Assembly: GCA_036274535.1 (NCBI GenBank)
Contig: DASUFM010001023.1
Span: 1 to 37,068, forward strand
Reading direction: 5' to 3'
DNA length: 37,068 bases
Origin: Blastocatellia bacterium
GTDB taxonomy: Bacteria; Acidobacteriota; Blastocatellia; RBC074
In this document: positions 1-26,871 of the stretch, piece after piece
How the letters are laid out: each line of letters starts with the position of its first letter
Position numbering within the stretch: position 1 is the stretch's first letter
The notes under the pieces: model-generated
Told to the model about the DNA's origin: nothing
Database searches by the model: none
The model's input: the letters and a program-made list of their open reading frames with translations, nothing else
Translations under genes and position numbers: made by a program

Positions 1-222
1 GAACTCCGTACCCAGCCAAAGGTAGCCGTCGGGAGTTTGAGCAATAGAAATGATTTGGCCCTTGGGAAAGCCGTCGCGGATCCTCCACGAGGTATGCGCG
101 TACTGATTGACTTCCAGCGCCGGATCAAGCGCGAACGCGCAGGGGCAACACGCCAGCAAAATGCAAGCCAGCGCAATGCCGGGCGTGATAAAGTGTTGTC
201 CTCGTGGGCGCGCTATATCCAT
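1..222 (-). CDS. N-terminal fragment (74 codons) of a ligand-binding sensor protein of the two-component-regulator beta-propeller type. It runs off the left edge of the window.
   Basis: This is not in the ORF track. The reverse complement of 222-1 reads ATG GAT ATA ... = MDIARPRGQHFITPGIALACILLACCPCAFALDPALEVNQYAHTSWRIRDGFPKGQIISIAQTPDGYLWLGTEF, open to position 1. It has a hydrophobic signal-like segment followed by the LDP..QY.H..W....G.P...I..I.QT.DGYLWLGT pattern typical of the first blade of these sensors. It is divergent from the TonB receptor gene. Confidence 0.55.
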   Translation of the reverse strand, partial: MDIARPRGQHFITPGIALACILLACCPCAFALDPALEVNQYAHTSWRIRDGFPKGQIISIAQTPDGYLWLGTEF

Positions 223-309
223 TTGGCGCAAATCTTACCGCATCATAATCTCATGATTGCATGGCAGTATGATCTTGCGACTGGACCAAGAAAATCCCAT
301 TATCCGGGC

Positions 310-371
310 ATTGACGCGTCACCCTTTTGGAGGATTGACACGTCACCCTTTTGGGGGATTGACGCAACGCC
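310..371. promoter_or_regulatory. About 2.5 tandem copies of a 24-bp unit with TGACGCGTCA-type palindromic cores, in the divergent promoter region. Candidate iterated operator and/or -35 elements.
   Basis: Unit 1 (310-333) is ATTGACGCGTCACCCTTTTGGAGG. Unit 2 (334-357) is ATTGACACGTCACCCTTTTGGGGG, a 22/24 match. A partial unit 3 starts at 358 (ATTGACGC...). Each unit contains a TTGAC hexamer start and a TGAC-NN-GTCA palindrome. The array lies 48-109 nt upstream of the ATG at 419. Confidence 0.4.
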
Positions 372-418
372 GAGCGCGGGAATAACTTCGCGCTTTCCAT
401 ATCACCCGAGGTCAATTT

Positions 419-3400
419 ATGAGCCGAGTCGCATTCGCTCTCCTCCTGTGCGCTTCGTTCGCATCTGTTCTTTGCGCGCAATCAACCAGGGCATCGCTCA
501 CGGGTCGCATAACCGACCCCGCGAAAGCAATCATCAGCGGGGCCAAAATCGCCGCCATCAGCGCCGACACAAATGTTCGTTACGAAACCACGACCAACGG
601 CTCGGGCGAATACCACCTGACGAATCTGGCGCCGAGCCTCTATCGCATCGAAATTGAAAAACCCGGATTCAAAAAGTTGATCAAGCCGGATGTGATCCTT
701 CACGTCCAGGATGCCCTCAAAATTGACTTCGAGATGGCGCTTGGTTCCATATCCGAGATAGTCACGGTGGAAGGCGGCGCGCCTCTCGGGAACACCGAGC
801 CGGCGGCGGTCAGCACGGTGATTGACCGCGCCATCGTCGACAATCTTCCTCTCAATGGGAGGAGTTTCCAGACCTTGATCACGCTAACGCCAGGTGTGGT
901 ATTGACCCCCACGGTTTTCGACGAGCAAGGACAATTCAGCGTGAATGGCCAACGCGCGGATGCCAACTATTTCACCGTAGATGGAGTCAGCGCCAATTTC
1001 GGCGTGACTGGCTACGTTACACTTGGGCAGACTGCCAGCGGAGCGTTGCCTGCGCTTAGCGCTTCTGGTGGGACAAACAGCCTCGTGTCGGTGGACGCCA
1101 TGCAGGAATTTCGCATCCAGACGTCTTCGTTTGCTCCAGAGTTTGGACGCGCTCCTGGCGCCCAGGTCTCAATAGTGACGAGGTCTGGAACGAATGCTTT
1201 TCATGGCGCCTTGTTTGATTATTTCAGGAATAACGCGCTCGACGCCAAGGACTGGTTTGTGAATTTCAACGGTCTATCAAAACCTGCGGAGCGGCAAAAT
1301 GACTTCGGCGGTGTATTCGGCGGCCCAGTCTTCAAAGACAGGACTTTCTTCTTCTCCTCCTATGAAGGGTTGCGGTTGCGCCAGCCGTCGACCCAGCAAA
1401 CCGCCGTCCCAGACGCTGCGTCGCGACAGCAGGCCCCACCTGCGATGCGCCCCTACTTGAACGCCTATCCGATTGCAAACGGGACTTCGCTAGGGTCAGG
1501 TTTGGCGCAATTCAGCGCCAGCTATTCGAACCCTTCTACGCTTGACGCCTACAGCATCCGCGTGGATCACGTTGTAAATTCTAAACTCAGCTTGTTTGGC
1601 AGGTATAACTACTCACCATCTAATCTGGACCAGCGAGGTCCATTGTTCTCTTCAGGCAGGGTGCTCAGCACGACAAATTCGATGTCATCCTCCGTACAAA
1701 CTGGAACAGCCGGCCTCACCCAACTGATCAGGCCGGGAATCAGCAACCAAGCGCGTTTGAACTACAGCAACCACAGAGTTAGCATTAAATACGCTATGGA
1801 TAATTTCGGCGGCGCAGTACCGCTTCCCGATTCCATCTTGTTTCCCGCCGGATACTCATCCGCTAATGGCATTTTCTTATTTGCCATCTCAGGCGTTGGG
1901 CAGTACGGTCAGGGCAAATCGGGGACGAATGAGCAGCGCCAGGTCAATCTTGTAGATGATCTCTCGGTGAACAAAGCCGGCCACCAATTGAAGTTTGGCG
2001 TGGACTATCGCTGGCTCGCCCCTTTCAGTAGTCCGTACTCATATCAGCAATTTGTACTTTTCTCTGGAGTGACGGGCGCCGTTTCGGGAACAGCCTCGTT
2101 CGCCCAATCGACAGCATTTCAAGCCAATGCGCTTCTATCACAAAATTTCTCGCTGTATGGCCAGGACACCTGGAAGATTACACCCCGCTTGACGGTGACT
2201 TATGGCTTGAGATGGGACGTCAATCCGCCGCTGAAGGGCAAGAATGCGGCGAATGATCCGTTCACGGTAGTGGGCCTGAGTAATCCGGCAACAATGACCC
2301 TGGCGCCTCGCGGCGCGCCGCTGTATGAAACAACCTATGGAAATGTGGCGCCGAGAATTGGACTGGCTTATCAACTCGGTGGAATGCGAAATTGGGGCGC
2401 TGCTCTGCGCGCAGGCTTCGGGGTGTTTTACGATCTTGGGCAAGGATCGTTGGGAGGAGTTTCCAGCTTCTTTCCCTACAGTATCAGCAAGAACTTTGCC
2501 TCGGCGCCATTTCCGTTAAGCCCTCAGGATGCGGCTCCTCCGGCCCTTAGCGCCAATACGCCTGTTTCCAGCATTCTTGTAGCCGATCCGCATTTGAAGC
2601 TTCCGCGGAGCTTCCAGTGGAATATCTCGCTGGAGCAGTCTATCGGGAGCAGCCAAAGTTTATCGCTAACATACATCGGCGCCGTTGGGCGTGACTTGCT
2701 TCGGGCAACCAGGTTATTTAACGTGAATCCGAATTTTCAGTCCATCACACTAACTGACAACTCGGCGACATCGGACTATCACGCTGTACAACTCAAGTTT
2801 CAGCGACGATTGTCCCGAGGGCTGCAAGGGTTGGCATCGTATACCTTCTCCCACTCTATTGATATTGCCTCGACGGATGCAGGCACCAATCGCAGCACGC
2901 CCGGCACGATTGCTAACCCGAACGTAGACCGCGGGAATTCCGACTTTGACATCCGGCATTCCTTAACCGCCGGTGTGACATACGGCCTGCCCTCTCCAGG
3001 ATCGTACCAGCTTATACATGCAGCGTTGAGCGGTTGGTCGCTGGACGTTTTCGTTCTGGCCAGATCGGCCCCGCCAGTTAACATCGTCGGCGCAATTACC
3101 TCTGCCGCGGGCGTGACCCTCTCTTACCGCCCAAACCTCAATCCGGGAGCGCCTCTTGAGCTCTACGGCGCGCAATATCCTGGTGGCAAAATTTTCAATC
3201 GTGCGGCTTTTTCCGCCGCGCCAGTTGGACAGCAAGGTTATCTCGGGCGCAACGCACTACGAGGGTTCGGAGCATCGCAAGCGGATGTTGCGCTGCAGCG
3301 GCGATTTCGCGTCACCGAGAAGTTGGGTATTTGTTTCCGAGCCGAGTTCTTCAACATCTTCAACCACCCAAATTTTGGGAGTCCGACCAATGTCCTGACT

Positions 3401-3535
3401 AGCCCTTTGTTCGGTAGCTCAACGCAAATGCTCGCGAATAGTCTGGGGTCCGGTGGCGCGAATGGCGGTCTAAGCCCTCTCTATCAGATTGGCGGGCCGC
3501 GCTCGACCCAGTTAGCTCTTAAACTTCAATTTTGA
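419..3535 (+). CDS. TonB-dependent outer-membrane receptor with an N-terminal carboxypeptidase-regulatory-like domain.
   Basis: 1038-aa ORF. The signal peptide is MSRVAFALLLCASFASVLCAQ. Next comes SLTGRITDP...GEYHLTNLAPSLYRIEIEKPGFKK (CarboxypepD_reg fold pattern), then a plug-like region (VVDNLPLNGRSFQTL). The remainder is long and rich in beta-strand residues, ending in the aromatic terminus ...LALKLQF typical of OM beta-barrels. GAGG lies 7 nt upstream of the ATG. Confidence 0.85.
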   Translation: MSRVAFALLLCASFASVLCAQSTRASLTGRITDPAKAIISGAKIAAISADTNVRYETTTNGSGEYHLTNLAPSLYRIEIEKPGFKKLIKPDVILHVQDALKIDFEMALGSISEIVTVEGGAPLGNTEPAAVSTVIDRAIVDNLPLNGRSFQTLITLTPGVVLTPTVFDEQGQFSVNGQRADANYFTVDGVSANFGVTGYVTLGQTASGALPALSASGGTNSLVSVDAMQEFRIQTSSFAPEFGRAPGAQVSIVTRSGTNAFHGALFDYFRNNALDAKDWFVNFNGLSKPAERQNDFGGVFGGPVFKDRTFFFSSYEGLRLRQPSTQQTAVPDAASRQQAPPAMRPYLNAYPIANGTSLGSGLAQFSASYSNPSTLDAYSIRVDHVVNSKLSLFGRYNYSPSNLDQRGPLFSSGRVLSTTNSMSSSVQTGTAGLTQLIRPGISNQARLNYSNHRVSIKYAMDNFGGAVPLPDSILFPAGYSSANGIFLFAISGVGQYGQGKSGTNEQRQVNLVDDLSVNKAGHQLKFGVDYRWLAPFSSPYSYQQFVLFSGVTGAVSGTASFAQSTAFQANALLSQNFSLYGQDTWKITPRLTVTYGLRWDVNPPLKGKNAANDPFTVVGLSNPATMTLAPRGAPLYETTYGNVAPRIGLAYQLGGMRNWGAALRAGFGVFYDLGQGSLGGVSSFFPYSISKNFASAPFPLSPQDAAPPALSANTPVSSILVADPHLKLPRSFQWNISLEQSIGSSQSLSLTYIGAVGRDLLRATRLFNVNPNFQSITLTDNSATSDYHAVQLKFQRRLSRGLQGLASYTFSHSIDIASTDAGTNRSTPGTIANPNVDRGNSDFDIRHSLTAGVTYGLPSPGSYQLIHAALSGWSLDVFVLARSAPPVNIVGAITSAAGVTLSYRPNLNPGAPLELYGAQYPGGKIFNRAAFSAAPVGQQGYLGRNALRGFGASQADVALQRRFRVTEKLGICFRAEFFNIFNHPNFGSPTNVLTSPLFGSSTQMLANSLGSGGANGGLSPLYQIGGPRSTQLALKLQF

Positions 3536-3643
3536 ACATGCTATTTCGAGAATCCCGCGCTTCACGCTGCTCATCGCAGACTCGGTTCGAAAGCTTGGCG
3601 AGGAAATCAAGGCCGATGATTTTTTGCGACCGGTCATCAGCTC

Positions 3644-3702
3644 GACTTTGTCCATTTTGTGGCGCTGGCGCCAGCGGGCGGCGCCACAAAATGGACAAAG
3701 TC
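3644..3702. terminator. Perfect 22-bp inverted repeat with a 15-nt loop, between convergent genes. Candidate (bidirectional) transcription terminator or insulator hairpin.
   Basis: Left arm 3644-3665 is GACTTTGTCCATTTTGTGGCGC. Right arm 3681-3702 is GCGCCACAAAATGGACAAAGTC, its exact reverse complement. The T5 run (3710-3714) starts only 7 nt after the stem on the + strand. There is no U-tract on the minus-strand side, so a classical intrinsic terminator is not fully supported. Confidence 0.4.
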
Positions 3703-3762
3703 AGCGCCATTTTTCAATGTCGTAATCTGATGTTGGACTCCCGGAAACCGGCTGATTTGGGC

Positions 3763-6700
3763 TCATCCCCCGTCTATTTGAGCAAAGATTCTGGCCAGGT
3801 CCTCCGTGGTTAACTGTTCATCGGTCAGATCAGCAAGCGCCGCGTTCGGTTGGCCATTCGCGCAATAATGAATGATCATTCTGCGTAGTTCCGCCGCCCA
3901 TAGGTTTCCCAGAAGCTCAATAGATTCACGTCGGTAAACTCTTTCACTATACCGAAAGACAAGTTGCATCGCGTTGCCAGACACGCCCGCTCCTATCTCA
4001 AGAGTATAGGGACGGCGGCCGTGCGGGCTATGCATAGGTCCCACGGGCTCCGGCGCCAAAGCGAACCATCCATCAGCAAGCATTTGATCGAACTGACCCA
4101 GGTAGTTAAAACTTATTTCGGGCAAGGAATGTTTTCGCAGCCGGGCTTGATTCTCGCTTCCTGCCCGCAGGTATCTTAGCAGGCCGAACCCCATGCCTTG
4201 GCGCGGAATCTGTCGCAGAGTCTTTTGCACACTGCATAAAGCCTTCTCCAGAGGTTGCAGCCTGGTCTCTAACCACACCGGATAAACGGCGGTGAACCAG
4301 CCGACGGTGCGTGAGATGTCTATCGCTTCAGAGATGTGCTCGCGTCCGTGCCCCTCGACAGCGAGCAATAGGCCTTCAACCCGGGCAGATCTGGGGTCTT
4401 GTCCCCAGGACTGCGCCAATGCAGTCAGCAATAGATCCTGGATCTGCGAGCCGGAAGCTGATGTCACTTTATGTAAAAGATCGTATGTCTCTTCTTTCGA
4501 CAGACAGAGTTGCGCGCTTTGCGTCCACTGCTCACTGTTGTCGCTGGTGGGAAAGTCCGCCATCATCGCTCGGCCTCTGTGACTCAGCGTGTTTTCCCAA
4601 TAGGGCAATTCCGCTTCAATCTCCGGCGATTGCGCATAACAGCGCAACTCCTCGGCCCAACGCTTGAATGAGGTCGTTTTCCGCCCGAACGATATCTCCC
4701 ATCCACGCTCAAGTCGCTCATAGCCCTTCTGCAAATCTTCCAACAGGATGCGCCATGACACGCCATCGAAGATCAAATGATGCATGACCAGCAGAAGCCT
4801 TTGCGGACTCTCGGGGCCGCAATCAAACAGCGCGATGCGCCACAACGGCCCCCGCGCCAAATTGAGGCTGGCCTGCATCCGCGCGGCGCGTCTCTCAAGC
4901 TCGCCACATCGCTCAGCCATAAGCAGCCCCGACAGGTCCTCAAAGGAGAAAGCGGCCTCCTCCTCGCCACACGCCTCATTCGTTTGCCGCCATACGCCTT
5001 CATGATCGGTAAAACGCAGCCGCAACGCATCGTGATGCCGGTTCAGGGCGACTGTCACCCCGCGCAGCAGGTCAGGATCAAGTCTTCTTCTGACTTCCAG
5101 CATGACGGCCTGATTCCAATGCTGCGGTTGTGGAAGATCCAGCTCAAAGAACCAGCATTGAATTGGAGTCAAAGGAACCAGGCCAGTGACGATCCCCTGT
5201 TCGGCGTCCACGACCGCTCCGGTCCGCGCGACTTTGGCCAGTTCGGCGATGGTCTGACGCTGGAAAAGATCTCGCGGCTTGAGCCTCATACCGCGTTGAT
5301 TCGCTTTTGCCACGATCTGAATGCTCAGGATCGAGTCTCCGCCCAGATCGAAGAAGTTGTCATGAACTCCAATTCCTCTTACTCCCAACACCTCTTCCCA
5401 CACCTGCGCCATCTCCTTCTCGTCCTTCCCGCTCGCCGCCACCGACCCGGAGCCTTCCGCCGCCTCTCCTCTCGCCCACTCCTCCACCTTCTCTCTCCAC
5501 ACCTTCCCATGCGCCGTCAACGGTATCTCTTCCACCTCCCTCACCACCCACGGCCTCATCGCCTCCGGCAACCTCTCTCTCAGATACTCCTTCCAATTCA
5601 CTTCCTCTCTCTCTTCTCTCTCCCTCATCACTACATACCCCACCAGCCTCTCCACCGCTCCATTCTCTCCTCTCACTCCCACCACCACCGCTTCTCTCGC
5701 CTCCGGATGTTCCTTCAGCGCGCTCTCGATCTCTCCCAGCTCTATACGCTGTCCTCGCAGTTTGATCTGGCCATCGGCTCGGCCGATGAACTGAAGTTCT
5801 CCGTCAGGCAGAAATCGGACTATGTCGCCGGTGCGGTAGAGTCGCGCTCCGGGGGTTGAGGAAAAAGGATCAGGAATGAACCGCTCCGCGGTGAGCGCCG
5901 GCTGATCCAGATAGCCTCGGGCAACGCCATCTCCGCCGATGAAGAGTTCCCCGCTGACTCCGATGGGAACCGGCCGCAACCGCCGGTCCAGCGCATAGAC
6001 CTGCGTATTGGCGATTGGACGCCCGATTAATGGCAGGCCATGCGCGGCGCTCTTTGTAGACGCCAGTCCGGCGGTCGCTACAACAGTGGTCTCTGTAGGC
6101 CCGTAATGGTTGAGCACGGGAAACTTTATGCGCGGATCCGGATAACGTTCCAATCTATCCCCGCCTGTCAGTAAAGCGCGCAAGGATGCTCCCTCTACTG
6201 GCCAGGGATCTGCGATAAGCCGCTCGGCCAGCGGCGTCGGCGCAAAGCTTATCGTGATTCGGTTGGTGATCAACCAGTTCCGCAGACGCGCGGGTGAGAC
6301 GCGTATCTCTTCTTCTTCAGGAATGTAAAGACTGGCCCCAGCCGTAATGTAAGGCCACAATTCCCACACGGAAGCGTCAAAACCGGACCCGGCGAGTAAC
6401 GTGGCGCGATCTGACGGACCGATCTCATAAGTTTGCTGATGCCACTGCACAAGGTTGGCCAGTGACGCGTGTTGGACGGCCACGCCTTTCGGGCGACCGG
6501 TCGAACCCGATGTGTATATCACATACGCCAACCGATCCCATTCCACTTCCATTCCTGGCTCATCGGCTTCAAGTCGCTCTCCCTCTCCCAACATTCCTCC
6601 GACGCCTACCACCTCCACGCCTACCATATTTTCCAATCGTTTGTCCTCTCCCTCATCCACTAATAACAACCTCATTCCCGCATCTCTGACCATGTACTCC

Positions 6701-8475
6701 ACCCGCTCCCGCGGATACTCGACATCCAGCCCCACATATGCCCCCCCCGCCGCCATCACTCCAATCACAGATCCCACCAGCCATCCTCCTCGCCTCATCA
6801 ACACACCTACTCTCTCCTCGCTCTTCACCCCGCGGGCTCGCAGAAATCCCGCCACACGCCTCGCGCGATGGCTCAACTCCCTATAGCTGATCTGTTCCGT
6901 TCCACACACCAGCGCGATGGCCTCTGGTTGAGCGGCGGCCCTGAGAAAAAACAGATCATGGACAGGGCTGGTCAGTTGGAGAGGAAGCGCGGTTTGATTC
7001 CAGGAGACAAGTATCTGATGAAGTTCAGAAGGAGAGAAGAAATTTAGTGAATGGATAGAGAGCGTGGGGCTGGAGGTGATATTGACGAGCAGGTTGAGCC
7101 AGTGACGCCGCAATCGTTCGATGGTTGCGTGATCGAAAATGCCCGCGTTGTACTCGAAATACCCGCTGACCGAGTCCGGCCCGGACTCCAGCGAAAGCGC
7201 CAGATCGAATTTCGACGTCCCGTTATCCACATCCACCCAGCGCGCTTCGATCCCCGGCAGAGAGAACTCTTTCGCGATCGCCTCATGCGCGTCGAAGACG
7301 ACCTGAAACAGCGGCGTCTGCTCCATACTGCGCGCCGGACGCAACTCTTCCACGAGTTTCTCAAACGGCAGGTCCTGATGCGCATACGCTTCAAGCGTCA
7401 CATTTTTTACGCGATCCAGCAGTTCCATGAACGTCGGACTACCCGTCATATCCACTCGCAGTGGAAGCATGTTGACGAAAAAACCGATCAGGGCCTCAAG
7501 ATCTTTTCGATTGCGATTGGCGATCGGCGACCCGACGATCAAATCTTCGCGCCCTGTGTAGCGGCTCAGCAACGTCAGGAAGGCGGCAAGCGTCGTCATA
7601 AAGAGCGTAGCGCCGGCGCGGCGGCTCAAGTCTCTCAGTCCCTGCGATAGAGCCTCCTCAAACGAGAAATAAAGTCTTGCGCCATTGAAGGTCTGCGCAA
7701 CGGGCCTGGGACTATCGGTCAGCAGGCTCGACACCGGCAAATCTCCGACCAATTTTTGTTTCCAGAAGTTCAAAGACTCCGCCGCCGCGCCGCTCTCCAC
7801 CCACTCCCTCTGCCACACCGCGTAATCCGCATATTGAATCGGCAGGTCCGGCGACGGCGGCGGCGAGGAGGAAACAAACCCCTTGTACAAAGCCGTCAAC
7901 TCGCGCGCCAAGACGGTCAAGGACCAGGCGTCGGCGACGATGTGGTGCAGCGTCACCAGCAACACGTGTTCGTCATGTCCCAGAGCCAGCAGAGCGACTC
8001 GCATCAACGGCGGCCTAGACAGGATGAACGGCCGCCGCGCTTCCTGCGCCATCCATCGGCGGATCGCCGATTCATCGGCGACGCCTCCATCGAAGTTCGG
8101 ATCGATCGGTTTGAGCGAGATCTTCGCCTCCGGAATGACGATCTGTGACGGCTCGCCGTCCACCACAGCCAGAACGGTCCGCAGCGTTTCGTGTCTCTGC
8201 GTCAATTCGTTGAAGCCGTCTTCCAGGGCCTTTATGTTCAGCGGCCCAGTCAGGTAAAACGCGCCCGCAAGGTTGTAATGAGGACTTTCCGGCGCAAGTT
8301 GATGCAAAAACCATAGGCGCTGTTGGGCAAAAGATAAAGGAAAGACGAATCCCTCCACCTCGTTTTCCATCACGGCAAGAGCGGCGTTATCCGACATATG
8401 AACAGATATCGATTTGGACATTACGTACAGGTTATAGGCGGCGCCTTTCATTGCCCCTTGCCCATTGAGGAACAA
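3763..8475 (-). CDS. Non-ribosomal peptide synthetase, one module: C-A-T-E (Leu-like A domain, terminal epimerase with a COM-donor-like tail).
   Basis: 1570 aa. C domain: FPLSFAQQRLWF, HHIVADAWS. A domain: LAYVIYTSGSTGRPKG, NHYGPTETT, YRTGD, GRADGQIKLRGQRIELGEIE. T domain: FFDLGGDSILSIQI (the GGDSI type that precedes E domains). E domain: PLTPIQCWFF, HHLIFDGVSW, EGHGRE, RTVGWFT, FNYLGQFD. The ORF's first codon is TTG and the first ATG is at 8451, so the exact start is uncertain. Confidence 0.95.
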   Translation of the reverse strand: MFLNGQGAMKGAAYNLYVMSKSISVHMSDNAALAVMENEVEGFVFPLSFAQQRLWFLHQLAPESPHYNLAGAFYLTGPLNIKALEDGFNELTQRHETLRTVLAVVDGEPSQIVIPEAKISLKPIDPNFDGGVADESAIRRWMAQEARRPFILSRPPLMRVALLALGHDEHVLLVTLHHIVADAWSLTVLARELTALYKGFVSSSPPPSPDLPIQYADYAVWQREWVESGAAAESLNFWKQKLVGDLPVSSLLTDSPRPVAQTFNGARLYFSFEEALSQGLRDLSRRAGATLFMTTLAAFLTLLSRYTGREDLIVGSPIANRNRKDLEALIGFFVNMLPLRVDMTGSPTFMELLDRVKNVTLEAYAHQDLPFEKLVEELRPARSMEQTPLFQVVFDAHEAIAKEFSLPGIEARWVDVDNGTSKFDLALSLESGPDSVSGYFEYNAGIFDHATIERLRRHWLNLLVNITSSPTLSIHSLNFFSPSELHQILVSWNQTALPLQLTSPVHDLFFLRAAAQPEAIALVCGTEQISYRELSHRARRVAGFLRARGVKSEERVGVLMRRGGWLVGSVIGVMAAGGAYVGLDVEYPRERVEYMVRDAGMRLLLVDEGEDKRLENMVGVEVVGVGGMLGEGERLEADEPGMEVEWDRLAYVIYTSGSTGRPKGVAVQHASLANLVQWHQQTYEIGPSDRATLLAGSGFDASVWELWPYITAGASLYIPEEEEIRVSPARLRNWLITNRITISFAPTPLAERLIADPWPVEGASLRALLTGGDRLERYPDPRIKFPVLNHYGPTETTVVATAGLASTKSAAHGLPLIGRPIANTQVYALDRRLRPVPIGVSGELFIGGDGVARGYLDQPALTAERFIPDPFSSTPGARLYRTGDIVRFLPDGELQFIGRADGQIKLRGQRIELGEIESALKEHPEAREAVVVGVRGENGAVERLVGYVVMREREEREEVNWKEYLRERLPEAMRPWVVREVEEIPLTAHGKVWREKVEEWARGEAAEGSGSVAASGKDEKEMAQVWEEVLGVRGIGVHDNFFDLGGDSILSIQIVAKANQRGMRLKPRDLFQRQTIAELAKVARTGAVVDAEQGIVTGLVPLTPIQCWFFELDLPQPQHWNQAVMLEVRRRLDPDLLRGVTVALNRHHDALRLRFTDHEGVWRQTNEACGEEEAAFSFEDLSGLLMAERCGELERRAARMQASLNLARGPLWRIALFDCGPESPQRLLLVMHHLIFDGVSWRILLEDLQKGYERLERGWEISFGRKTTSFKRWAEELRCYAQSPEIEAELPYWENTLSHRGRAMMADFPTSDNSEQWTQSAQLCLSKEETYDLLHKVTSASGSQIQDLLLTALAQSWGQDPRSARVEGLLLAVEGHGREHISEAIDISRTVGWFTAVYPVWLETRLQPLEKALCSVQKTLRQIPRQGMGFGLLRYLRAGSENQARLRKHSLPEISFNYLGQFDQMLADGWFALAPEPVGPMHSPHGRRPYTLEIGAGVSGNAMQLVFRYSERVYRRESIELLGNLWAAELRRMIIHYCANGQPNAALADLTDEQLTTEDLARIFAQIDGG

Positions 8476-8510: not shown

Positions 8511-11500
8511 CTATTGGGGAAGGCGTACCCGCCGCGAGGCGCGGGTCACTGGCTTGATCTCCGCAAGACGGGATTCCTCACAGGAGCCTTGAAGGCGCTC
8601 GACGATTTCAGCCAGACGCGCGATAGTTGGAGATTCAAACAGGGCGCGCAGCGGAAGCTCAACCGCCAAGGATTCTTTTACCCTCGAAGCTATCTGCGTG
8701 GCGAGCAGCGAATGACCTCCAAGTTCAAAGAAATCATCCTCGACCCCCACGCGCTCAGCCTTTAACACCTGCCGCCATATGTCCGCCAACGCTGTTTCGA
8801 TTGGAGTCCTGGGCGCGAGATGATGTTCCGTCAACTGAGCGCGCGACCATTGCGGATCCGGCAGCGCTCGACGATTGATCTTTCCGTTGGGCGTGAGCGG
8901 CAATTCCGGCAGCCACACATAGAAGTTTGGCGTCATGTGTTCCGGCAGTTTGGTTCTTAGATAGGTCCGCAACTGCGCGACAGATGGTCTCTCCGGCTCC
9001 GCATCGATTAAGTAAGCGACCAGATTCCGCCGCCCGTCATGATCTTCCCGCGACGCCACTACTGCGGCGCTGATAGATGGGTGCGCCAACAACACGGCTT
9101 CAATTTCGCCCAATTCTATTCGGAAGCCGCGTATCTTAACCTGCTGATCGCTTCGCCCCAGATATTCGATTCGACCATCGGGTAAAAACCGCGCCAGATC
9201 GCCAGTCCGGTACATGCGAGCGCCCCGGCGCCCGCTGAAAGGGTTCGGCGTAAATCTCTCGGCTGTCAGCGATGGCTGATTCAGGTAACAGCGCGCAAGT
9301 CCGGCGCCGCCGATGTAGAGTTCACCTGTAACGCCAACCGGCGCGGGCTGTAACGCCTCATTCAAAATGTAAATCTGCGTATTGGCTATCGGGCGTCCGA
9401 TGCTCGGATTTCCCGCCAGTTCATGCGGCGTCGCTTCGCATGTTGAGTATGTCGTGGACTCAGTGGGACCGTATAGATTGAAGACCCGCCGCGCCGCGGT
9501 CGTCTGATAAATTCGCTCGACCAGCGCTCCAGGCAAAGCCTCGCCGGCCAGGTTGACAGTCTGCGCGTTGGCGGGCGCGCCTCCCATCCTTATCAATTCC
9601 GCCATCGCCGAAGGCACGGTATTGATCAACGTCACTTCACCGGCGGCGGGCAGTTGTGGCGCCTGCAATGCGTTCTCGGCCATGACGATCGTGGCGCCAC
9701 AACTGAGCGGCGCGAAGATCTCAAACACGGAGAGGTCAAAACAGAGGGAGGTTGAGAAGAGCGTCCGAGCCAATTGCCGCGGCGTGAACTGAGTGAGAGC
9801 CCAGGAAAGGAAAGCGACCGCGTTCCGGTGCTCGATCGCCACGCCTTTCGGGCGACCGGTCGAACCCGATGTATATATCACATACGCCAGCTGTTCACTG
9901 CGCGCCTCTTCGCCTTCCCACTCCACCCTTTCTCCCGCCTCTTCCCCTCCCAACTCAACTACTTCGACTCCTCCTACCCTGCCCCTCTTTGATCCATCTC
10001 CCTCATCCACCAATAACACTCTCACTCCGGCGTCCATCATCATGTATTCCACTCGCTCGGCTGGATACTCAAGATCCAACGCCACATACGCCCCTCCCGC
10101 CATCAATACTCCAATCACCGCCCCCACCATCCACTCTCCACGCTTCATCAACACTCCCACTCGCTCCTCAGCCTTCAACCCGCGCGCCTGCAAAAGCCTG
10201 GCTACCAGCGCGGCTCTCCGCGCCAGTTCGCCGTAGCTGATCCGCCTGGATCCGCAAATCAGCGCTACGGCGTCGGGTTGACGAGCGGCCTGGAGGAGGA
10301 ACTGTTGATGAATGAGATCAACGGGAGGAAGCGGTTGGGTGGTCTGGTTCCAGGTAATGAGGATCTGGCGCAGCTCGGAGGGAGAGAGAAGCGGAATGGA
10401 GTTGATAGGTCGCGATGGACAGTCTGTGACGGCTGAAAGGAGGTTAAGCCAATGGCCCCGCAACCGTTCGATGGTTGTCCTGTCAAAAATATCCGTGTTG
10501 TATTCAATCGCGCCGATCAGTCCCTGCGCCGCATCGGCCATTGCCAGTGAAATGTCAAAACGCGTCGCGCATCTTTCAACGAACACTCCCTCCAGATCGA
10601 GCCCGCCCAAATCCACGCGCGCGCCCTCTGCGCCCAGGGCGAGTGAAGCCAGTTCACTCTGGCCCTCAAGCTGGACGTTCTGAAAAACAAACATCGCCTG
10701 GAAGACGGGCGTGCGCCCCGGGTCACGTCTGGGGTTCAGACGCTCAACCAGGCGATTGAATGGATAATCCTGATGTTCGATGGCCTCCAGCGCCGTCTCC
10801 CGGATCTGCCTGTGAAACTCATTGAAGGAAACGTTTGAGCTGAAACCGGCGCGTATGGGAAGCATGTTTACAAAATAGCCGGCGACATCGGCCCATTTCG
10901 CCGAGGCGCGACCGGCTGCTGGCGTCCCAACGATTATGTCTTCCTGCCACGTATGGCGATGCAGCAGCGCGTGGAAAGCAGCCAGCAATGTGACAAACAG
11001 GCTCGCTTCGTTCATGGAGCTGAACGCCTTAAGCGCGGCGGTCAAGTCAGGCGGGATGACAAGCCGCTCCGTGGCGCCGGAAAAGGCTTGCGCCAGCGGG
11101 CGCGGACGATCCGCCGGCAGATTAAGCATGGGTAATTCTCCGTTAAGGCGCCGGCGCCAGTAGCGCCACTGCTCTTCGCCCCTCGCGCCCGTGACGAACT
11201 CTTCCTGCCAGCGAACAAAATCCGTGTACCGCCATGCCGGCGCCGCGGGCGTCGCGGATTCTCCGCCAGTCTCCTCACGGTAAAGAAGACCAAGCTCGCG
11301 AGCGATGATCGCCATCGACCACATATCGGCGATGCTGTGATGTATGACCAGCAGGATCAAATGTTCTTCCGGTCCCAGACGGAATATGCGAACGCGAAAC
11401 AACGGCCCGCGTTCCAGGTCGAAACGGCGGTGAGCTTCTTTCTTCAGTTCCAGCCGCAACGCGCCGTCCTCCCAGTTCTCGGCTTCCACTTCCAGAAGCG

Positions 11501-13973
11501 GGATCTCAAAATCCGCTGGCGCCATGTATTGCGCGGGAGAGCCGCGCTCTATTCTGTAGGTCGTCCTCAATACTGGATGGCGCAAGGCGAGTTTTCGAAA
11601 ACAGCGTCGCAGGGCGGGAACATCCAGAGGGCGCCGCGAACGCGCCGCAATATGGATGTTGTCCGGAGTCAGGTCGCCTGGAACCTGACTCAGGAACCAG
11701 AACGCGCGCTGTCCATACGAGAGAGGATGGGAATCCGCTTCGGCGTCGTTCGAGGGTATGCTTTCCGGCCGCGCTTCATCCGATTTCCCTGGCGTTATCG
11801 TCGTCAACTGCGCGAAGCATTCGCGCGCCAGTTCGCCGAGCGTCGCGCCTCGTATGATCTCTGTCAGGGACAGGGAAACTCCAAGACCTTTTTCTATCCT
11901 GTGAACCAGATCTACGGCCTTGAGCGAATCCAGACCAGCCCAGTCGATCTGTTCGTTAGCTTTATGGCTGGGAAAATCGCGTCCGAAAGACGCGGATAGC
12001 GTGTCCCGCAGCCATCTTTCAATCGATTCCGGATCATGCGGGCGAACTCCCACGGCATCGCCCACGGCATCGCCCACGGCATCGCCCACGGCATCGCCCA
12101 CGGCATCGCCCACGGCATCGCCCACGGCATCGCCCACGGCATCGATGGATGGCGGCGCCACTGTTCCCGCCCGGCCGGCGTCGTCACGCCACGTGGCTAC
12201 AGTCCTGAGCGTCCCACCCAGGTAATCTTCGCGGCAGGAGTGTCGTTGAATCTTGCCGCTGGAAGTTTTGGGAATGCTCCCATAGCGGACAAAAACGATT
12301 TCATAAGGCTCCAGGCCGTGTTCCTTAATGATGGCCCGGCGAACATCCTCGAACAATCGCGCGAAATCCAGATCGCGGTAACGCCGAACCTCCTGCGCCA
12401 CTATCAACCGTTCTTCCCCATCGACGTCAGAAGAGAAAGCCGCGCTGGCATGAGGCGGGAAGGCTGTGTGGCTCCTCTCGACGGTCAGCTCGATATCCTG
12501 TGGATAATAGTTCAGACCGCGAATGATAATAAGGTCCTTCAGCCTTCCTGTCACAAACAACTGATCATCGATCAGAATGCCCAGATCGCCCGTGCGCAGG
12601 TAAGGGCCTTCGCCCGTGTCCGCCAGAAAAGCGCGAAACACCCGCTCGGTCGCGGAAGCGTTTTGCCAGTACCCCTGCGCGACGCTCGGACCCGAGACCC
12701 AGATTTCACCCACTCTTCCAGAGGGGCAGGGTATTCCTGTTTCAGGATCGACGATCCTGACGCGCTGCCCTGGCAGCCCCCTCCCTGACGCAACGAGCGT
12801 TTGCCCGGCGTCCTCGCCTTGTTCGGCCCCTTGCCCCGTATGGATGATTTGACACCGCTTGAGTGAGCGCGCCGCCACTGTCCGGCTGACTGGGCCGTGA
12901 CCTTTAGGGCCGCCGGTGACGATCAGCGTCGCTTCGGCCAGACCGTAGCATGGGAAGAAGGCGCGCGAGTTGAACCCGTATGGCGCGAAGGTCTCGCTGA
13001 AACGTTCCAGCGTGCTGTGACGCACCGCCTCAGAGCCGTTGAAAGCCACCTCCCAACACCGTAAATCAAGCCCTGCGCGTTGCTCCGGCGTGGTCCTCAG
13101 CGCGCACAGATCATAGGCGAAGTTGGGACCTCCGCTGATGTTCGCCCGCATGCGCGAGATCGCCTTCAGCCATTGGATCGGACTCTGCAGAAAAGTCTCC
13201 GGCGCCATCAACGAGCATCCATAACCGCCGTAGAGCGGTTGGAGGACGCTCCCGATCAGTCCCATGTCGTGATACATGGGAAGCCAGCTGACGCAATGGC
13301 TATCCGCGTCGTACTCAAAAGCGTGGCTTAAAAGCCTGGAATTGCTCAACAGGTTGGAATGAGTCAACACGACGCCATGCGGATCGCCCGTCGAACCCGA
13401 TGTGTATTGGATGAAAGCCGTCGTTCCCTCATTTATCCTGGTCTCTCGCCACTCAGAGGCTAATGACTCCGGCAGTTCCGTTGTATCTATCACCTGACGA
13501 ATCGATCCGTCATGCGCGCCGCCAAATGCGCTTTCAACCGCTTCCCGATTCTTCGACGCGGTGAGCGCCACGCTCGCGCGCGCGTCAAGCGCAAGAGTCT
13601 GTAAGCGCAGCGCGCGGCGATTGTGACGCGGCGGATAAGCGGGAACCGCTACGACTCCGGCGTACAGGCAACCGAAAAAAGCGGCGATGTATTCCAGCCC
13701 TGGTTGGTAGAGCGCCAGAACGCTTTCCCCGCCACTCACAATCGACTGCAGATAAGCCGCGATCATGCGGGCTCGATGATCGAGTTGACGATAAGTCAGT
13801 TCCGCCGCAACCGTTTCGCCGTCGTCCAGAAAACGATAAGCGACGCGATCCGGCTGGAGCCGAGCGCGTCGGCTCAACAGTTCCACAAGGGTTCTGGAAG
13901 ATTGCGGAGAATCCGGCGGATTTAAATCAGCGCCGCCGGCTTCCGCTCGTGGCGAATGAATCGTTTCGCGCAT
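8511..13973 (-). CDS. Lipoinitiation NRPS: fatty acyl-AMP ligase (FAAL)-ACP-C(starter type)-A-T.
   Basis: 1820 aa. FAAL: FIQYTSGSTGDPHGV, WLPMYHDMGLIG, GGPNFAYDLC, YLRTGDLG, SSGKIQR. ACP: WAGLDSLKAVDL. C domain: HPLSYGQRAFWF, HHSIADMWS. A domain: LAYVIYTSGSTGRPKG, NLYGPTESTTY, YRTGDLARF, GRSDQQVKIRGFRIELGEIE, PLTPNGKINRRAL. T domain: FFELGGHSLLATQI. ATG at 13973. Confidence 0.95.
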   Translation of the reverse strand: MRETIHSPRAEAGGADLNPPDSPQSSRTLVELLSRRARLQPDRVAYRFLDDGETVAAELTYRQLDHRARMIAAYLQSIVSGGESVLALYQPGLEYIAAFFGCLYAGVVAVPAYPPRHNRRALRLQTLALDARASVALTASKNREAVESAFGGAHDGSIRQVIDTTELPESLASEWRETRINEGTTAFIQYTSGSTGDPHGVVLTHSNLLSNSRLLSHAFEYDADSHCVSWLPMYHDMGLIGSVLQPLYGGYGCSLMAPETFLQSPIQWLKAISRMRANISGGPNFAYDLCALRTTPEQRAGLDLRCWEVAFNGSEAVRHSTLERFSETFAPYGFNSRAFFPCYGLAEATLIVTGGPKGHGPVSRTVAARSLKRCQIIHTGQGAEQGEDAGQTLVASGRGLPGQRVRIVDPETGIPCPSGRVGEIWVSGPSVAQGYWQNASATERVFRAFLADTGEGPYLRTGDLGILIDDQLFVTGRLKDLIIIRGLNYYPQDIELTVERSHTAFPPHASAAFSSDVDGEERLIVAQEVRRYRDLDFARLFEDVRRAIIKEHGLEPYEIVFVRYGSIPKTSSGKIQRHSCREDYLGGTLRTVATWRDDAGRAGTVAPPSIDAVGDAVGDAVGDAVGDAVGDAVGDAVGDAVGVRPHDPESIERWLRDTLSASFGRDFPSHKANEQIDWAGLDSLKAVDLVHRIEKGLGVSLSLTEIIRGATLGELARECFAQLTTITPGKSDEARPESIPSNDAEADSHPLSYGQRAFWFLSQVPGDLTPDNIHIAARSRRPLDVPALRRCFRKLALRHPVLRTTYRIERGSPAQYMAPADFEIPLLEVEAENWEDGALRLELKKEAHRRFDLERGPLFRVRIFRLGPEEHLILLVIHHSIADMWSMAIIARELGLLYREETGGESATPAAPAWRYTDFVRWQEEFVTGARGEEQWRYWRRRLNGELPMLNLPADRPRPLAQAFSGATERLVIPPDLTAALKAFSSMNEASLFVTLLAAFHALLHRHTWQEDIIVGTPAAGRASAKWADVAGYFVNMLPIRAGFSSNVSFNEFHRQIRETALEAIEHQDYPFNRLVERLNPRRDPGRTPVFQAMFVFQNVQLEGQSELASLALGAEGARVDLGGLDLEGVFVERCATRFDISLAMADAAQGLIGAIEYNTDIFDRTTIERLRGHWLNLLSAVTDCPSRPINSIPLLSPSELRQILITWNQTTQPLPPVDLIHQQFLLQAARQPDAVALICGSRRISYGELARRAALVARLLQARGLKAEERVGVLMKRGEWMVGAVIGVLMAGGAYVALDLEYPAERVEYMMMDAGVRVLLVDEGDGSKRGRVGGVEVVELGGEEAGERVEWEGEEARSEQLAYVIYTSGSTGRPKGVAIEHRNAVAFLSWALTQFTPRQLARTLFSTSLCFDLSVFEIFAPLSCGATIVMAENALQAPQLPAAGEVTLINTVPSAMAELIRMGGAPANAQTVNLAGEALPGALVERIYQTTAARRVFNLYGPTESTTYSTCEATPHELAGNPSIGRPIANTQIYILNEALQPAPVGVTGELYIGGAGLARCYLNQPSLTAERFTPNPFSGRRGARMYRTGDLARFLPDGRIEYLGRSDQQVKIRGFRIELGEIEAVLLAHPSISAAVVASREDHDGRRNLVAYLIDAEPERPSVAQLRTYLRTKLPEHMTPNFYVWLPELPLTPNGKINRRALPDPQWSRAQLTEHHLAPRTPIETALADIWRQVLKAERVGVEDDFFELGGHSLLATQIASRVKESLAVELPLRALFESPTIARLAEIVERLQGSCEESRLAEIKPVTRASRRVRLPQ
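12049..12145 (-). repeat. Perfect in-frame 12-nt tandem repeat, about 8 copies, encoding (DAVG)8 in the FAAL-ACP linker.
   Basis: The + strand unit CACGGCATCGCC is repeated without mismatch at 12051-12134, with a partial eighth copy to 12145. On the coding strand it is GGC GAT GCC GTG. The protein reads ...PPSIDAVGDAVGDAVGDAVGDAVGDAVGDAVGDAVGVRPHD... Confidence 0.97.
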
Positions 13974-14030: not shown

Positions 14031-14261
14031 TCAGGACTTCGAAGCCGCTTCCTGCTCTGCCATCTTCTTCCGCAAGCTCAACGGCCGCATGTCAGTCCAC
14101 ACTTCCTTGATATGGGCCAGGCATTCGTCCTTCGGACCGCTCTTTCCCACATCATTCCAGCCGAGCGGATTCTCGCGGTCGGCCGGCCAGATCGAGTATT
14201 GCTCTTCGTGGTTGACAACCACTTTGTAGATGGTTGTGTCCTCTCTTTCATCTCTGTTCAT
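14031..14261 (-). CDS. MbtH-like protein (A-domain chaperone).
   Basis: 76 aa. Signature: [22 protein letters not shown]...[18 protein letters not shown], i.e. the N.E.QYS.WP...P.GW motif with conserved Trp residues. AAGGAGA Shine-Dalgarno just upstream. Confidence 0.93.
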
Positions 14262-21773: not shown

Positions 21774-21788
21774 ATCAGGACCGGCGCC

Positions 21789-21791
21789 CTA
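21789..21791 (-). other. In-frame amber (TAG) codon interrupting a C-A(N-MT)-T-C-A-T NRPS reading frame of about 2600 codons.
   Basis: The coding strand across the site reads CGC CAG ACT CTG TAG GGC GCC GGT CCT GAT TTG CTC TAT ATC ACG AAC GTC CCA = RQTL*GAGPDLLYITNVP. The frame is the same on both sides. Confidence 0.9.
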
Positions 21792-25701: not shown

Positions 25702-26871
25702 TCAGGGATCGATCAACCATGCTTTGGCGATGGCGACCGGCGGGCCCGAACCGGAAGCGACATAGCCTCCCGCCACGAGCGTTTTGCCGTTCGGCAGCGC
25801 GGTCGCCGTGTTGCAAAATACTTCGTCCCCCAAATCGCCCTTCACCCGACTGAAGGTCTCCGTCTTGGGATCGAAAATCTCCACTCTGTCGTGCCCGCCT
25901 GCGATGACGACTCTTCCGTCCGGAAGCGTCGCGGTCGCGGTAGTATGTTTAAAGTGAGCGACGTTCATATTCGGCGCCGGCGTAAATCGCCCCGTTTCGG
26001 GGTCGAAGATTTCGGTTGTTGGCCGGCGACCGCTCCATTCACGATTAACGCCCCCCCCCGTCAGCAGAACCCGGCCATCCTTGAGCAGGTTTGCGGCAAA
26101 CTTGAAACGCGGCTGGTTCATGTCTCCCGCCGGCGTGAAGCTTCCAGATCTGGGGTCATATATTTCAGCGCCGGCTAGAACGGTTCTCATATCCGTGGTC
26201 CCGCCACAAACGATGACTCGGCCATCTGGCAGCGCCGCCGCGGCGACCACTCCCCTGCCGGTCTTCATGGAGCCCGTCAGTTTGAATGTCCCACTGGATG
26301 GAGAATATAGCTCGGCCTCGCTGACGCCACGGCGATTGGCCAACCCTCCCGCCACCAGTATCCGGCCATCATTCAGTTTGACCAGCGCATGCCCCTCTCG
26401 CGCTTTGATCATGTCGCCGGTGGGCGAAAACCTGCCTGTCTCCGGATCATATATCTCCGCGTTGGCGACGCTCCCCCGCTCGTCAACCCCGCCTGTCAGC
26501 AGAACCTTCCCATCATTCATCAAAATCGCCATGGGGCCGACCCGTCTGGCGTTCATCTTCCCCGTCGGGGTAAAGCTTTCGGTCTGCGGGTCGTAGAGTT
26601 CCGCCGAATCCAGATAGCGCCCCTCTACCCGCATCCCGCCGGCCAAAAGCACTTTCCCGTTTTTGAGAAGCGTCGCCGCGTGCGCCGCCCGCGCTTCGAC
26701 CATCCCGCCGAGGCTCCTGATCGCGCCAATCTCAGTTATCATGCGTCCGCCGACCCCGGTGGAGTCCCCCCCCCGACTGGAGAAACAACTCAAAAGCGGT
26801 AATACGACGACGCCTACGAACACGCATAATCCGGCGTTCGGTGTGGTTGTAATTATTCTCTTTTTCCTCAT
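25702..26871 (-). CDS. Seven-blade Kelch-type beta-propeller protein with a signal peptide and possible lipobox.
   Basis: 389 aa. N-terminus: MRKKRIITTTPNAGLCVFVGVVVLPLLSC (lipobox-like LLSC). Then seven repeats of about 48 aa of the form (A/T)E(I/L)(Y/F)DP.(T/S)G.F(T/S)P.G.M...R.......L.DG(R/K)VL..GG. Confidence 0.8.
   Translation of the reverse strand: MRKKRIITTTPNAGLCVFVGVVVLPLLSCFSSRGGDSTGVGGRMITEIGAIRSLGGMVEARAAHAATLLKNGKVLLAGGMRVEGRYLDSAELYDPQTESFTPTGKMNARRVGPMAILMNDGKVLLTGGVDERGSVANAEIYDPETGRFSPTGDMIKAREGHALVKLNDGRILVAGGLANRRGVSEAELYSPSSGTFKLTGSMKTGRGVVAAAALPDGRVIVCGGTTDMRTVLAGAEIYDPRSGSFTPAGDMNQPRFKFAANLLKDGRVLLTGGGVNREWSGRRPTTEIFDPETGRFTPAPNMNVAHFKHTTATATLPDGRVVIAGGHDRVEIFDPKTETFSRVKGDLGDEVFCNTATALPNGKTLVAGGYVASGSGPPVAIAKAWLIDP
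26051..26059 (-). repeat. G9 homopolymer on the coding strand, within blade 5 of the Kelch gene.
   Basis: The + strand shows CCCCCCCCC at 26051-26059. It encodes part of LTGGGV. Confidence 0.9.
26766..26774 (-). repeat. G9 homopolymer on the coding strand, at codons 33-36 of the Kelch gene, just after the putative lipobox Cys.
   Basis: The + strand shows CCCCCCCCC at 26766-26774. The coding strand reads AGT CGG GGG GGG GAC (SRGGD). Confidence 0.9.

Follow-up and report, generated by a model that had tools for sequence, protein, structure and literature searches.

How does a nonribosomal peptide line pass on or let go of its chain when its last protein ends in an epimerization (E) domain and no synthetase carries a release domain? 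The question is posed by the 37,068-nucleotide stretch analysed here (the window), which coincides with the whole of contig C1023, one of 1067 contigs in a fragmented acidobacterial MAG (81% complete, 2.9% contamination). The explanation that we prefer, and consider probable on sequence grounds, has four parts: the last open reading frame would be a fusion produced by assembly collapse, the cluster would run on beyond 37068, the tail behind the E domain would dock to another protein, and release would fall to a free-standing condensation (C) domain or a type II thioesterase (TEII).

The cluster and the limits of the contig

The minus-strand gene order of the first-pass annotation was upheld: free C, Kelch, C-A(MT)..T-C-A-T, LarA-like, SbnA, SbnB, MbtH, FAAL-ACP-C-A-T and C-A-T-E. 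The main features are as follows.

28410-37005, minus strand: Dpg-type block of DpgA, aminotransferase, two glycosyltransferases, DpgD, DpgC and DpgB
36268-37005, minus strand: DpgB, above the NCBIfam cut-off
34879-36228, minus strand: DpgC, above the NCBIfam cut-off
33996-34907, minus strand: DpgD, above the NCBIfam cut-off
28410-29501, minus strand: DpgA, above the NCBIfam cut-off
26891-28330, minus strand: free-standing C domain with HHMIFDGLS, sister to the C domain at 24100-25559 and with the same N-terminal helix
25702-26871, minus strand: Kelch propeller protein, always adjoining the free C domain
17730-25559, minus strand: C-A(MT)-T-C-A-T synthetase, interrupted by an in-frame TAG at 21789-21791; LSPERRALL helix at the N-terminus
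14031-14261, minus strand: MbtH-like protein, with no TEII gene after it here, unlike in variant A of the cluster
8511-13973, minus strand: FAAL-ACP-C-A-T lipoinitiation synthetase, its C domain in the starter clade (domain scans, C-domain tree)
3763-8475, minus strand: ORF read as C-A-T-E, 1570 aa, most likely a fusion of two cluster genes

Two points of the earlier reading fell away. The C-A(MT)-T-C-A-T synthetase had been taken as one intact protein, and its frame is cut by the TAG, at a site where the closest relative has Glu. FAAL-ACP-C-A-T had been regarded as the sole module fit for initiation; synteny places just past 37068 a synthetase that begins with the C-terminal half of a C domain only. 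Synteny with relatives, together with other contigs of the MAG, suggests that the cluster itself extends past this point.

Judged by family membership, the genes at 28410-37005 are building-block supply and not release enzymes. The type III PKS, crotonase-family genes and aminotransferase were considered as the source of a releasing nucleophile and rejected, these being DpgA-D above NCBIfam cut-offs. A literature search on an acidobacterial Dpg peptide returned no paper.

Composition of the C-A-T-E frame

The last frame and its surroundings resolve into seven features.

7012-8343, minus strand: C domain with HHIVADAWS, a member of the clade whose C domains come after T domains; orthologue of the first C domain of P0122
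5503-6942, minus strand: A domain including its C-terminal subdomain (domain scan)
5326-6027, no strand: ~700-bp direct-repeat copy covering the A-domain end and the first half of the T domain; zone of the join
5339-5405, no strand: 67 bp with which contig C606 also begins, at 100% identity; C1023 and C606 part at 5338/5339
5233-5409, minus strand: chimeric T domain; both genes share the half before DNFFDLGG, and DSILSIQ onward belongs to the E-linked T domain
3862-5181, minus strand: intact E domain (motifs, TIGR01720, PDB matches)
3766-3861, minus strand: 32-aa tail after ..HYC (ANGQPNAALADLTDEQLTTEDLARIFAQIDGG), positional homologue of a COM donor or cis E-C linker

The terminal E domain is real and intact, as had been claimed. 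It carries the HHxxxDG core (HHLIFDG) and the EGHGRE motif (VEGHGREH), is preceded by a T domain with GGDSI (GGDSILS), and scores 119 bits on TIGR01720 (cut-off 74), all of which mark an NRPS epimerization domain. Its best solved relatives are the E domains of PvdL, TycB, TycA and GrsA, with E-values of 1e-87 to 1e-72; among NCBIfam models (PRK05691) and solved structures alike, PvdL is the best match.

The stand-alone C-A-T-E protein of the first reading, by contrast, breaks into two parts on alignment. Homology places its start at the ATG at 8421 rather than at the TTG at 8475. Residues 19-1050 of the 1570-aa ORF are ~85% identical to module 1 of P0122, a C-A-T-C-A-T protein, and beyond them identity is 26%. 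Against the KS-T-C-A-T-E hybrid of the relative L027, identity is ~40% up to residue ~800 and 80-92% from ~850 to the end; this KS-T-C-A-T-E gene is the true last gene in two syntenic clusters. At the DNA level, the match extends over nt 55-3150 for the P0122 gene and over nt 2449-4708 for the hybrid gene. By alignment, module 1 of a bimodular C-A-T-C-A-T synthetase accounts for the first ~1045 residues, and the end of the KS-T-C-A-T-E last gene for the last ~525 (second T half, E domain and tail). Most likely, two genes of one NRPS-PKS cluster are joined in frame here within a ~700-bp direct repeat. The identity between the two copies of this repeat is 92% in L027 and 86% in the relative L028.

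Part of the bypassed DNA is located, by overlap and homology, on contig C606 of the same MAG. When C1023 (8475 to 5339) is joined to C606 in silico, a C-A-T-C-A-T frame of 2199 aa stays open, with 84% identity to P0122. Past its 67-bp overlap, C606 encodes T-C-A-T and a KS gene, 85% identical to relatives, and the two contigs show equal divergence from relatives (85%) and equal G+C. The ~1.7 kb of the hybrid gene still missing is less than the smallest contig of the MAG (2016 bp).

Short-read assembly collapse appears to be the most likely origin of the fusion; a true deletion, by recombination in some of the population, would be a less likely one. As in repeat-induced collapse of other short-read assemblies, the contig enters a 700-bp intra-cluster repeat and takes the wrong exit, and the bypassed DNA forms a separate contig that overlaps the branch point; unlike in a plain collapse, the repeat here could mediate a genuine deletion. 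The contig might be correct: homologous recombination at the two repeat copies would then have cost this strain two and a half modules. This would fit a join that is in frame and exactly at the 700-bp repeat, itself a recombination substrate, and the nonsense codon of the neighbouring synthetase could mean that the cluster is decaying. We nevertheless judge such a loss unlikely, as C606 matches C1023 in divergence and G+C and overlaps it perfectly at the branch point. Nor was the fused gene found elsewhere: metagenome contigs held no independent copy above 52% identity, the best matches being generic A-T-E modules, and the best matches in the protein collection were unfused proteins of 2609 and 2602 aa. 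Equally improbable is the corollary that a shortened lipopeptide is made by FAAL-ACP-C-A-T and a real C-A-T-E, with C606 derived from a co-binned sister strain, for which the 2.9% contamination would leave room. Two observations count against a collapse: the overlap, at 67 bp, does not match the k-mer sizes that assemblers commonly use, and a genuine deletion variant would look alike, its in-frame fusion possibly encoding a working protein.

A product predicted from the domain architecture of the contig would mislead: a KS and about two and a half modules are bypassed, and more synthetase genes probably lie beyond the contig end. The case illustrates that a 700-bp repeat inside a cluster can, unnoticed, leave a MAG with an in-frame NRPS gene that looks plausible.

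The tail and its possible acceptors

The acidic tail reported behind the E domain is present (...LADLTDEQLTTEDLARIFAQIDGG). In three related clusters, diverged down to ~50% identity, the last gene ends with the E domain and this tail, and the length and register of the tail agree with those of 7 E-ending proteins in related genomes. The description of the tail as COM-donor-like stands in part. Like a COM donor, it is a short segment directly after E at the protein C-terminus (32 aa after ..HYC), and it is a positional homologue of a COM donor or of a cis E-C linker. The canonical TPSD(F) motif is replaced, by ALADL here and in L027 and by LLEEL in L028, where the tails and cis linkers of relatives carry TPSDF or SASDF.

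The COM interfaces of TycA/TycB, GrsA/GrsB, SrfA and BacB/BacC, and cis E-COM-C linkers, similarly have a ~30-aa amphipathic acidic-helix segment after E. In contrast to these systems, the tail here has ALADL or LLEEL in place of TPSDF and the cluster has no DCL-type partner C domain with an embedded 'hand'. COM pairs are known only at E/C interfaces with DCL-type C domains that bear this 'hand' (bioRxiv 10.1101/2025.06.08.658476). The tail also aligns to the E-C linker of PvdL from Pseudomonas aeruginosa (acyl ligase-T-C-A-T-C-A-T-E-C-A-T), which shares the fatty-acyl ligase start and has a T-E pair as well, internal in its case. In PvdL a DCL C domain (YPLTPMQEG..) follows E in cis, whereas here the protein ends past the linker-like tail.

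The five C domains of the window, one of which had been expected to be a DCL-type acceptor, were placed in a tree of 93 context-labelled C domains, 10 of them following an E domain. All 10 after-E domains fall in one clade with 99% support, and all five window domains lie outside it, an outcome that the first-pass annotation had itself named as one that would refute its hand-off. The tree places no C domain of the syntenic clusters in the after-E clade either. The five C1-region motifs are PLSFAQQRLWFL, PLSYGQRAFWFL, PLSFAQERLWFL, PLSFGQQRLWFF and PLSFSQRRLWEL, none of which has the DCL-type form (Y)PL(S/T)PMQ(E/Q)GMLFH; the contrast is between the PLSFAQQRLWFL type in the window and the YPLSPMQEGMLFH type after E domains. 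The three window C domains other than the starter C domain and the inner C domain of the bimodular gene were scored against PDB entries and reached 268/171/278 bits with TycC6 vs 140/87/109 bits with TycB1. On the PvdL-based NCBIfam model all five align to its second C domain, which agrees with the tree and is weak alone. We know of no C domain outside the after-E clade that takes D-configured donors from an E domain in trans. As first read, a native C-A-T-E protein would pass its D-intermediate to one of the window's own C domains, of the DCL type. This is highly improbable: E domain and tail are both there, but the ORF is fused and the after-E type is absent among the five C domains.

The more general proposal of hand-off in trans fared better. 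In related genomes, each of the 7 terminal E domains with a tail has a C-starting gene after it, and each of the 3 line-ending E domains lacks a tail, which makes trans hand-off a fair inference. Among relatives, the C-starting proteins with LSPEKR-type N-termini have donors that end in acidic ..LS(D/E)EE..LL helices; the tail here can be read in the same acidic way (..DLTDEQLTTEDLARIF). A basic LSPE(K/R)RALL N-terminal helix is found on the C-A(MT)-T-C-A-T synthetase and on its paralogue, the free-standing C domain. After epimerization of the last protein's residue, the acidic helical tail may dock to one of these two C-starting proteins. The docking motif classes rest on about six neighbouring-gene pairs, one of which breaks the pattern (in genome G041, the free C domain comes after a T domain whose tail is basic). 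Assigning each donor tail to an acceptor by motif class was suggestive and not consistent, and set no module order.

Alternatively, the tail could be a COM donor of the classical kind. Its acceptor would then be a synthetase encoded outside the window that opens with an after-E-type C domain, such as the NRPS of C676/C217, about 10 kb beyond 37068, or that of C210. Within the MAG, after-E-type N-termini occur only on other contigs, C676 and C210, whose proteins begin ..IYPLSPMQQGM(F/L)FH and fall in the after-E clade. Both G041 and a 1.46-Mb contig of a relative have the C676/C217 gene in synteny with the cluster. Yet the C676 protein has its own tailed E-ending donor two genes upstream, two peptidase genes separate its NRPS from the cluster, and the tail studied has lost TPSDF. 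No DCL-type C domain with a cognate N-terminal acceptor was found in the window or in syntenic clusters. We regard an outside acceptor as distinctly unlikely, preferring docking within the cluster.

A bolder version is that acidobacterial Dpg/Dap lipopeptide lines, as a conserved family, have a new E-to-C interface, a COM-donor helix re-tuned (TPSDF lost, LTDEQL-type acidic helix gained) to dock LCL-clade C domains via LSPE(K/R)RALL, with the free C domain and Kelch protein replacing a thioesterase or serving the half-C module in trans. We offer this only tentatively and think it rather unlikely as a whole. Docking of the tail to an LCL-clade C domain would, if true, widen the NRPS docking code and be useful in engineering.

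Routes of chain release

The puzzle that is left is real and conserved: a tailed E domain ends the last gene, with no classical C domain to accept the D-donor and no cis release domain. As had been noted, the NRPS termini in the window lack a TE, R or terminal C domain, and the same holds for the syntenic cluster inside the 1.46-Mb contig (ENA), which was examined via gene tables around exact-protein matches. Pfam and NCBIfam scans of the window ORFs gave no thioesterase or reductase family, a genome-wide search with PF00975 had no match on C1023, and a cis TE or R domain is absent from the L027 hybrid protein. The claim of no release domain anywhere holds for contig C1023, so that 'anywhere' covers one of 1067 contigs. 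Across the cluster family, the synthetases have no recognisable cis TE or R domain, and the chain may exit via the conserved free-standing C domain or a trans-acting TEII.

The free C domain and the Kelch gene are kept in every cluster variant. By its sequence, this C domain is a recent paralogue of the first C domain of the neighbouring synthetase; it groups with elongation C domains, and VibH is not among its PDB matches at 1e-10. Chain-releasing free-standing or terminal C domains include the amide synthase VibH, fungal C_T and the hydrolytic C domain of crocacin. As in those systems, a stand-alone C domain with an intact HHxxxDG stands in a cluster without a cis TE, with the difference that the domain here is predicted to be of the elongation type. 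To our knowledge, there is no agreed sequence signature of a releasing (terminal-type) C domain. Rather than releasing the chain, the free C domain could work for the module past 37068 whose own C domain is truncated. Its release of the chain would, if true, add a bacterial example of TE-independent release. We also observe, against such release, that it looks like an ordinary elongation C domain, unlike VibH or other releasing C domains.

A trans-acting TEII has precedent nearby. In variant A of the cluster, a 269-aa PF00975 TEII gene lies between mbtH and the FAAL gene (a TEII gene is within the cluster in L028/G041), and in related genomes a stand-alone TEII repeatedly occurs a few genes downstream of an E domain that ends the line. 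These genes resemble the GrsT/SrfD type, of which the window has none, nor is there a TEII gene in the 1.46-Mb relative. The E domain could accordingly be a true line end, with a trans TEII or the free C domain taking the D-chain from the last T domain and the tail a leftover of an E-C linker. The absence of an after-E-type C domain from the cluster, the TEII gene inside variant A and the pairings in related genomes speak for such an ending. It would leave the C-starting synthetases of the cluster without a donor, however, and line-ending E domains are tail-less in 3/3 cases, yet the tail is kept here in three diverged clusters. We consider a true line end less likely than hand-off through the tail, which is the reading that we favour. 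The sole PF00975/TEII homologue in the MAG is on contig C1026, at 46% identity, where it adjoins another KS gene.

Gene order and the last synthetase gene

Contig C1023 (37,068 bp) is the longest in its MAG, a 6.6-Mb assembly of 1067 contigs (81% complete, 2.9% contamination) whose placement in the Acidobacteriota, family Pyrinomonadaceae, comes from the names attached to homologues. ORF listing and Pfam/NCBIfam scans reproduce the minus-strand gene order described in the first-pass annotation:

26891-28330, minus: free C domain
25702-26871, minus: Kelch propeller
21789-25559, minus: C-A(MT), up to one TAG, after which the same frame runs on
17730-21773, minus: rest of A-T-C-A-T, continuing the C-A(MT) frame past the TAG
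minus: LarA-like, SbnA and SbnB, then MbtH (14031-14261)
8511-13973, minus: FAAL-ACP-C-A-T
3763-8475, minus: C-A-T-E
419-3535, convergent to the NRPS genes: outer-membrane barrel gene

The upstream genes are DpgA, DpgB, DpgC and DpgD, each above the NCBIfam equivalog cut-off; with the accompanying aminotransferase and two glycosyltransferases they supply a building block and play no part in release. The in-frame TAG (21789-21791) interrupts the methyltransferase insert of the A domain. At this position the closest relative encodes Glu, and other relatives Arg or Glu; TAG is one base from the Glu codon GAG and reflects either a nonsense mutation or an error in base calling.

The earlier observation is partly confirmed and its interpretation partly supported. 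The non-collinear gene order, the tail-bearing terminal E domain and the lack of both a D-donor-type C domain and a cis release domain are real and conserved, and belong to an uncharacterised family of acidobacterial lipopeptide clusters. The stand-alone C-A-T-E protein at the end of the line fared differently.

Stand-alone orthologues of the free C domain (58-86% identity) yielded, on their contigs, three syntenic clusters, and the downstream end was read in two of them (1.46-Mb and 75.8-kb ENA contigs). In both, FAAL-ACP-C-A-T is followed by a 2600-aa C-A-T-C-A(MT)-T protein (P0122, P0218) and then by a hybrid KS-T-C-A-T-E protein of 2374-2377 aa. Compared with P0122, the window C-A-T-E ORF shows about 85% identity through residue 1050 and 26% past it; against the KS-T-C-A-T-E protein, identity is about 40% as far as residue ~800, then 80-92% between ~850 and the end. 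In nucleotide alignments the P0122 gene covers nt 55-3150 of the ORF, and the hybrid gene covers nt 2449-4708. The two ranges have 700 bp in common (window 5326-6027); this segment spans the A-domain end and the first half of the T domain up to DNFFDLGG, and is a direct repeat found in both genes of each relative, with copies 92% and 86% identical.

The first 67 bp of another contig of the MAG, C606, are 100% identical to window 5339-5405, and beyond this overlap C606 encodes T-C-A-T, then residues 1-1095 of the KS protein. Its proteins are 85% identical to those of the relatives, a divergence equal to that of C1023, and G+C is equal too. Joining C1023 (8475 to 5339) to C606 in silico gives an uninterrupted 2199-aa C-A-T-C-A-T frame. 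The piece still missing, hybrid residues 1096-1660, would be about 1.7 kb, shorter than the smallest contig kept in the MAG (2016 bp). With the repeat taken twice, the only linear arrangement using each piece once is that of the relatives. From the identity switch, the repeat, the C606 overlap and this arrangement we therefore conclude that C1023 most likely passes through the repeat and exits wrongly, and that the stand-alone C-A-T-E, whose ORF is a fusion of two different genes of the cluster, is an assembly product. Recombination that truly deleted the segment in part of the population would give the same picture as an assembly collapse; we regard such a deletion as unlikely. We found no independent contig carrying the fused gene. 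In this MAG, the second module of the C-A-T-C-A-T protein (C606:3-3527, compared with P0122) has no methyltransferase insert; both relatives have one of ~400 aa.

The terminal E domain, its tail and the C domains

As first described, the final domain is a true E domain: it has HHLIFDG and EGHGRE, follows a T domain with GGDSI, and scores 119 bits against TIGR01720 (cut-off 74), and its closest solved structures are the E domains of PvdL, TycB, TycA and GrsA (E-values 1e-87 to 1e-72). The last gene has a conserved end, which reads ..HYCANGQPNAALADLTDEQLTTEDLARIFAQIDGG in the window and ..HYCAEGQPNATLADLTDEQLTAEDLAKIFAQIGEV and ..HYCELEAPDLLLEELADEHLSSAELANILEQLSDA in the syntenic clusters L027 and L028. 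In related genomes, seven E-ending proteins whose next gene starts in an after-E-type C domain carry a tail that matches the window's in length and register (for example ..HCQSPEAGGYTPSDFPLAQLDQVDLDQAFAEIEFE), whereas three line-closing E-ending proteins stop a few residues past the HC position, a 7 versus 3 count that includes orthologues of each other and is about 6 versus 2 when independent. Since tails are present before C-starting genes and absent at line-closing E domains, the window tail belongs with the hand-off tails, even though its TPSDF motif is gone; the likeness to a COM donor stands in length and register and fails at this motif. According to a recent structural study, no docking type other than COM pairs is known at E/C interfaces, and cis-COM linkers are their homologues (10.1101/2025.06.08.658476). 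All three lines that end in a tail-less E domain (G004:C13, G003:C25, G011:C26; loci L030-L033, L043, L046) have an MFS-type transporter within about 3 kb downstream, together with a type II thioesterase of 255-261 aa; a PPTase gene was observed in the G011 line alone. This is a recurrent architecture without a cis TE.

Two docking motif classes recur at several loci of the lineage. Acidic ..ELExLS(D/E)EE..LL tails of upstream neighbours precede C-starting proteins with an LSPEKR-type N-terminal helix (LSPEKRxLL), and KS-starting proteins come after basic tails of the form ..ERAxKRRxAR..; a pair of neighbours in the related genome G041 breaks this rule, and the sample of pairs is small. Both C-starting window proteins share the N-terminal helix (D)FI(N/K)RI(A/G)AL(S/P)PE(R/K)RALL, and the window tail contains DLTDEQL..EDLARIF. 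Going by these motifs, our best guess is that the tail would dock to one of the two proteins, a tentative pairing that we rate somewhat short of probable.

C domains from this MAG, the syntenic clusters and the NRPS regions of related genomes (93, labelled by preceding element) were placed in a tree by a quick IQ-TREE search with SH-aLRT support. All ten with an E domain before them, whether in cis or at the end of the preceding gene, fall in one clade (99% support), and all five window C domains lie on the other side of its branch. The FAAL-linked C domain falls in a starter clade, and the free C domain is sister to the first C domain of the bimodular synthetase. C domains following E domains, PvdL included, have YPLSPMQ(E/Q)GMLFH, and those of the window are PLSFAQQRLWFL-type; searched against the PDB, three window C domains score 268/171/278 bits with TycC6, 140/87/109 with TycB1 and 121/68/129 with SrfA-C. 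Motifs and scores agree with the tree on the predicted type. Subtyping finds no DCL-type acceptor in the window or the syntenic clusters, the outcome that the first-pass annotation had named as counting against its reading.

Beyond the contig and candidates for chain release

Pfam/NCBIfam scans find no thioesterase or reductase family in any window NRPS ORF. The earlier statement that there is no release domain anywhere holds for C1023 and, since the window is one contig of a 1067-contig MAG, means only that; a PF00975 search of the whole MAG gives matches on contigs C1026, C210 and C24 only.

The gene before DpgB on the 1.46-Mb contig encodes a 1961-aa synthetase with the order half-C, A, T, C, A, T, whose opening C domain is reduced to its C-terminal half and lacks HHxxxDG; further upstream lie two peptidase genes (S46, M61), then a 2642-aa NRPS ending in a C domain. 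Of the matching MAG contigs, C251 holds the M61 end, S46 and a half-C synthetase that shares 84% identity with the relative. On C217, M61 comes after the end of the upstream NRPS and its terminal C domain (HHLLLDG). On C676, a TauD-like gene stands with the end of another tail-bearing, E-ending protein and with the start of the upstream NRPS, whose C domain there is YPLSPMQQGMFFH-type. Neither the syntenic genes of the 1.46-Mb relative nor these three contigs hold a TE/R-bearing NRPS just beyond the window. The half-C module is either a second initiation-like module or one served by a C domain in trans. Given this synthetase beyond 37068, the FAAL module is not the sole initiation-like module, contrary to what had been supposed. 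The half-C synthetase upstream of the Dpg genes is kept in four genomes (G000:C251:2783-5764, this MAG; L048:849-6734; L014:4066-9936). The FAAL-ACP linker of the lipoinitiation synthetase contains seven tandem AVGD units with a 12-nt period (12057-12140).

Chain release may proceed via the free C domain or a type II thioesterase. The free C domain with its Kelch neighbour is the only candidate release element kept in every cluster variant. The two genes are neighbours in each (25702-28330, L014, L017, L048), with a B12/radical-SAM gene between them on the 1.46-Mb contig. In one variant, a gene for a 269-aa type II thioesterase separates mbtH from the FAAL gene; the window and the 1.46-Mb contig lack it, and its sole homologue in this MAG is on C1026. 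Alternatively to release, the free C domain might act in trans on behalf of the half-C module.

Just 3' of the last NRPS gene's stop lies a ~100-bp palindromic element (3634-3737), a dispersed REP- or terminator-like repeat with 30 copies on 29 MAG contigs at about 80-96% identity.
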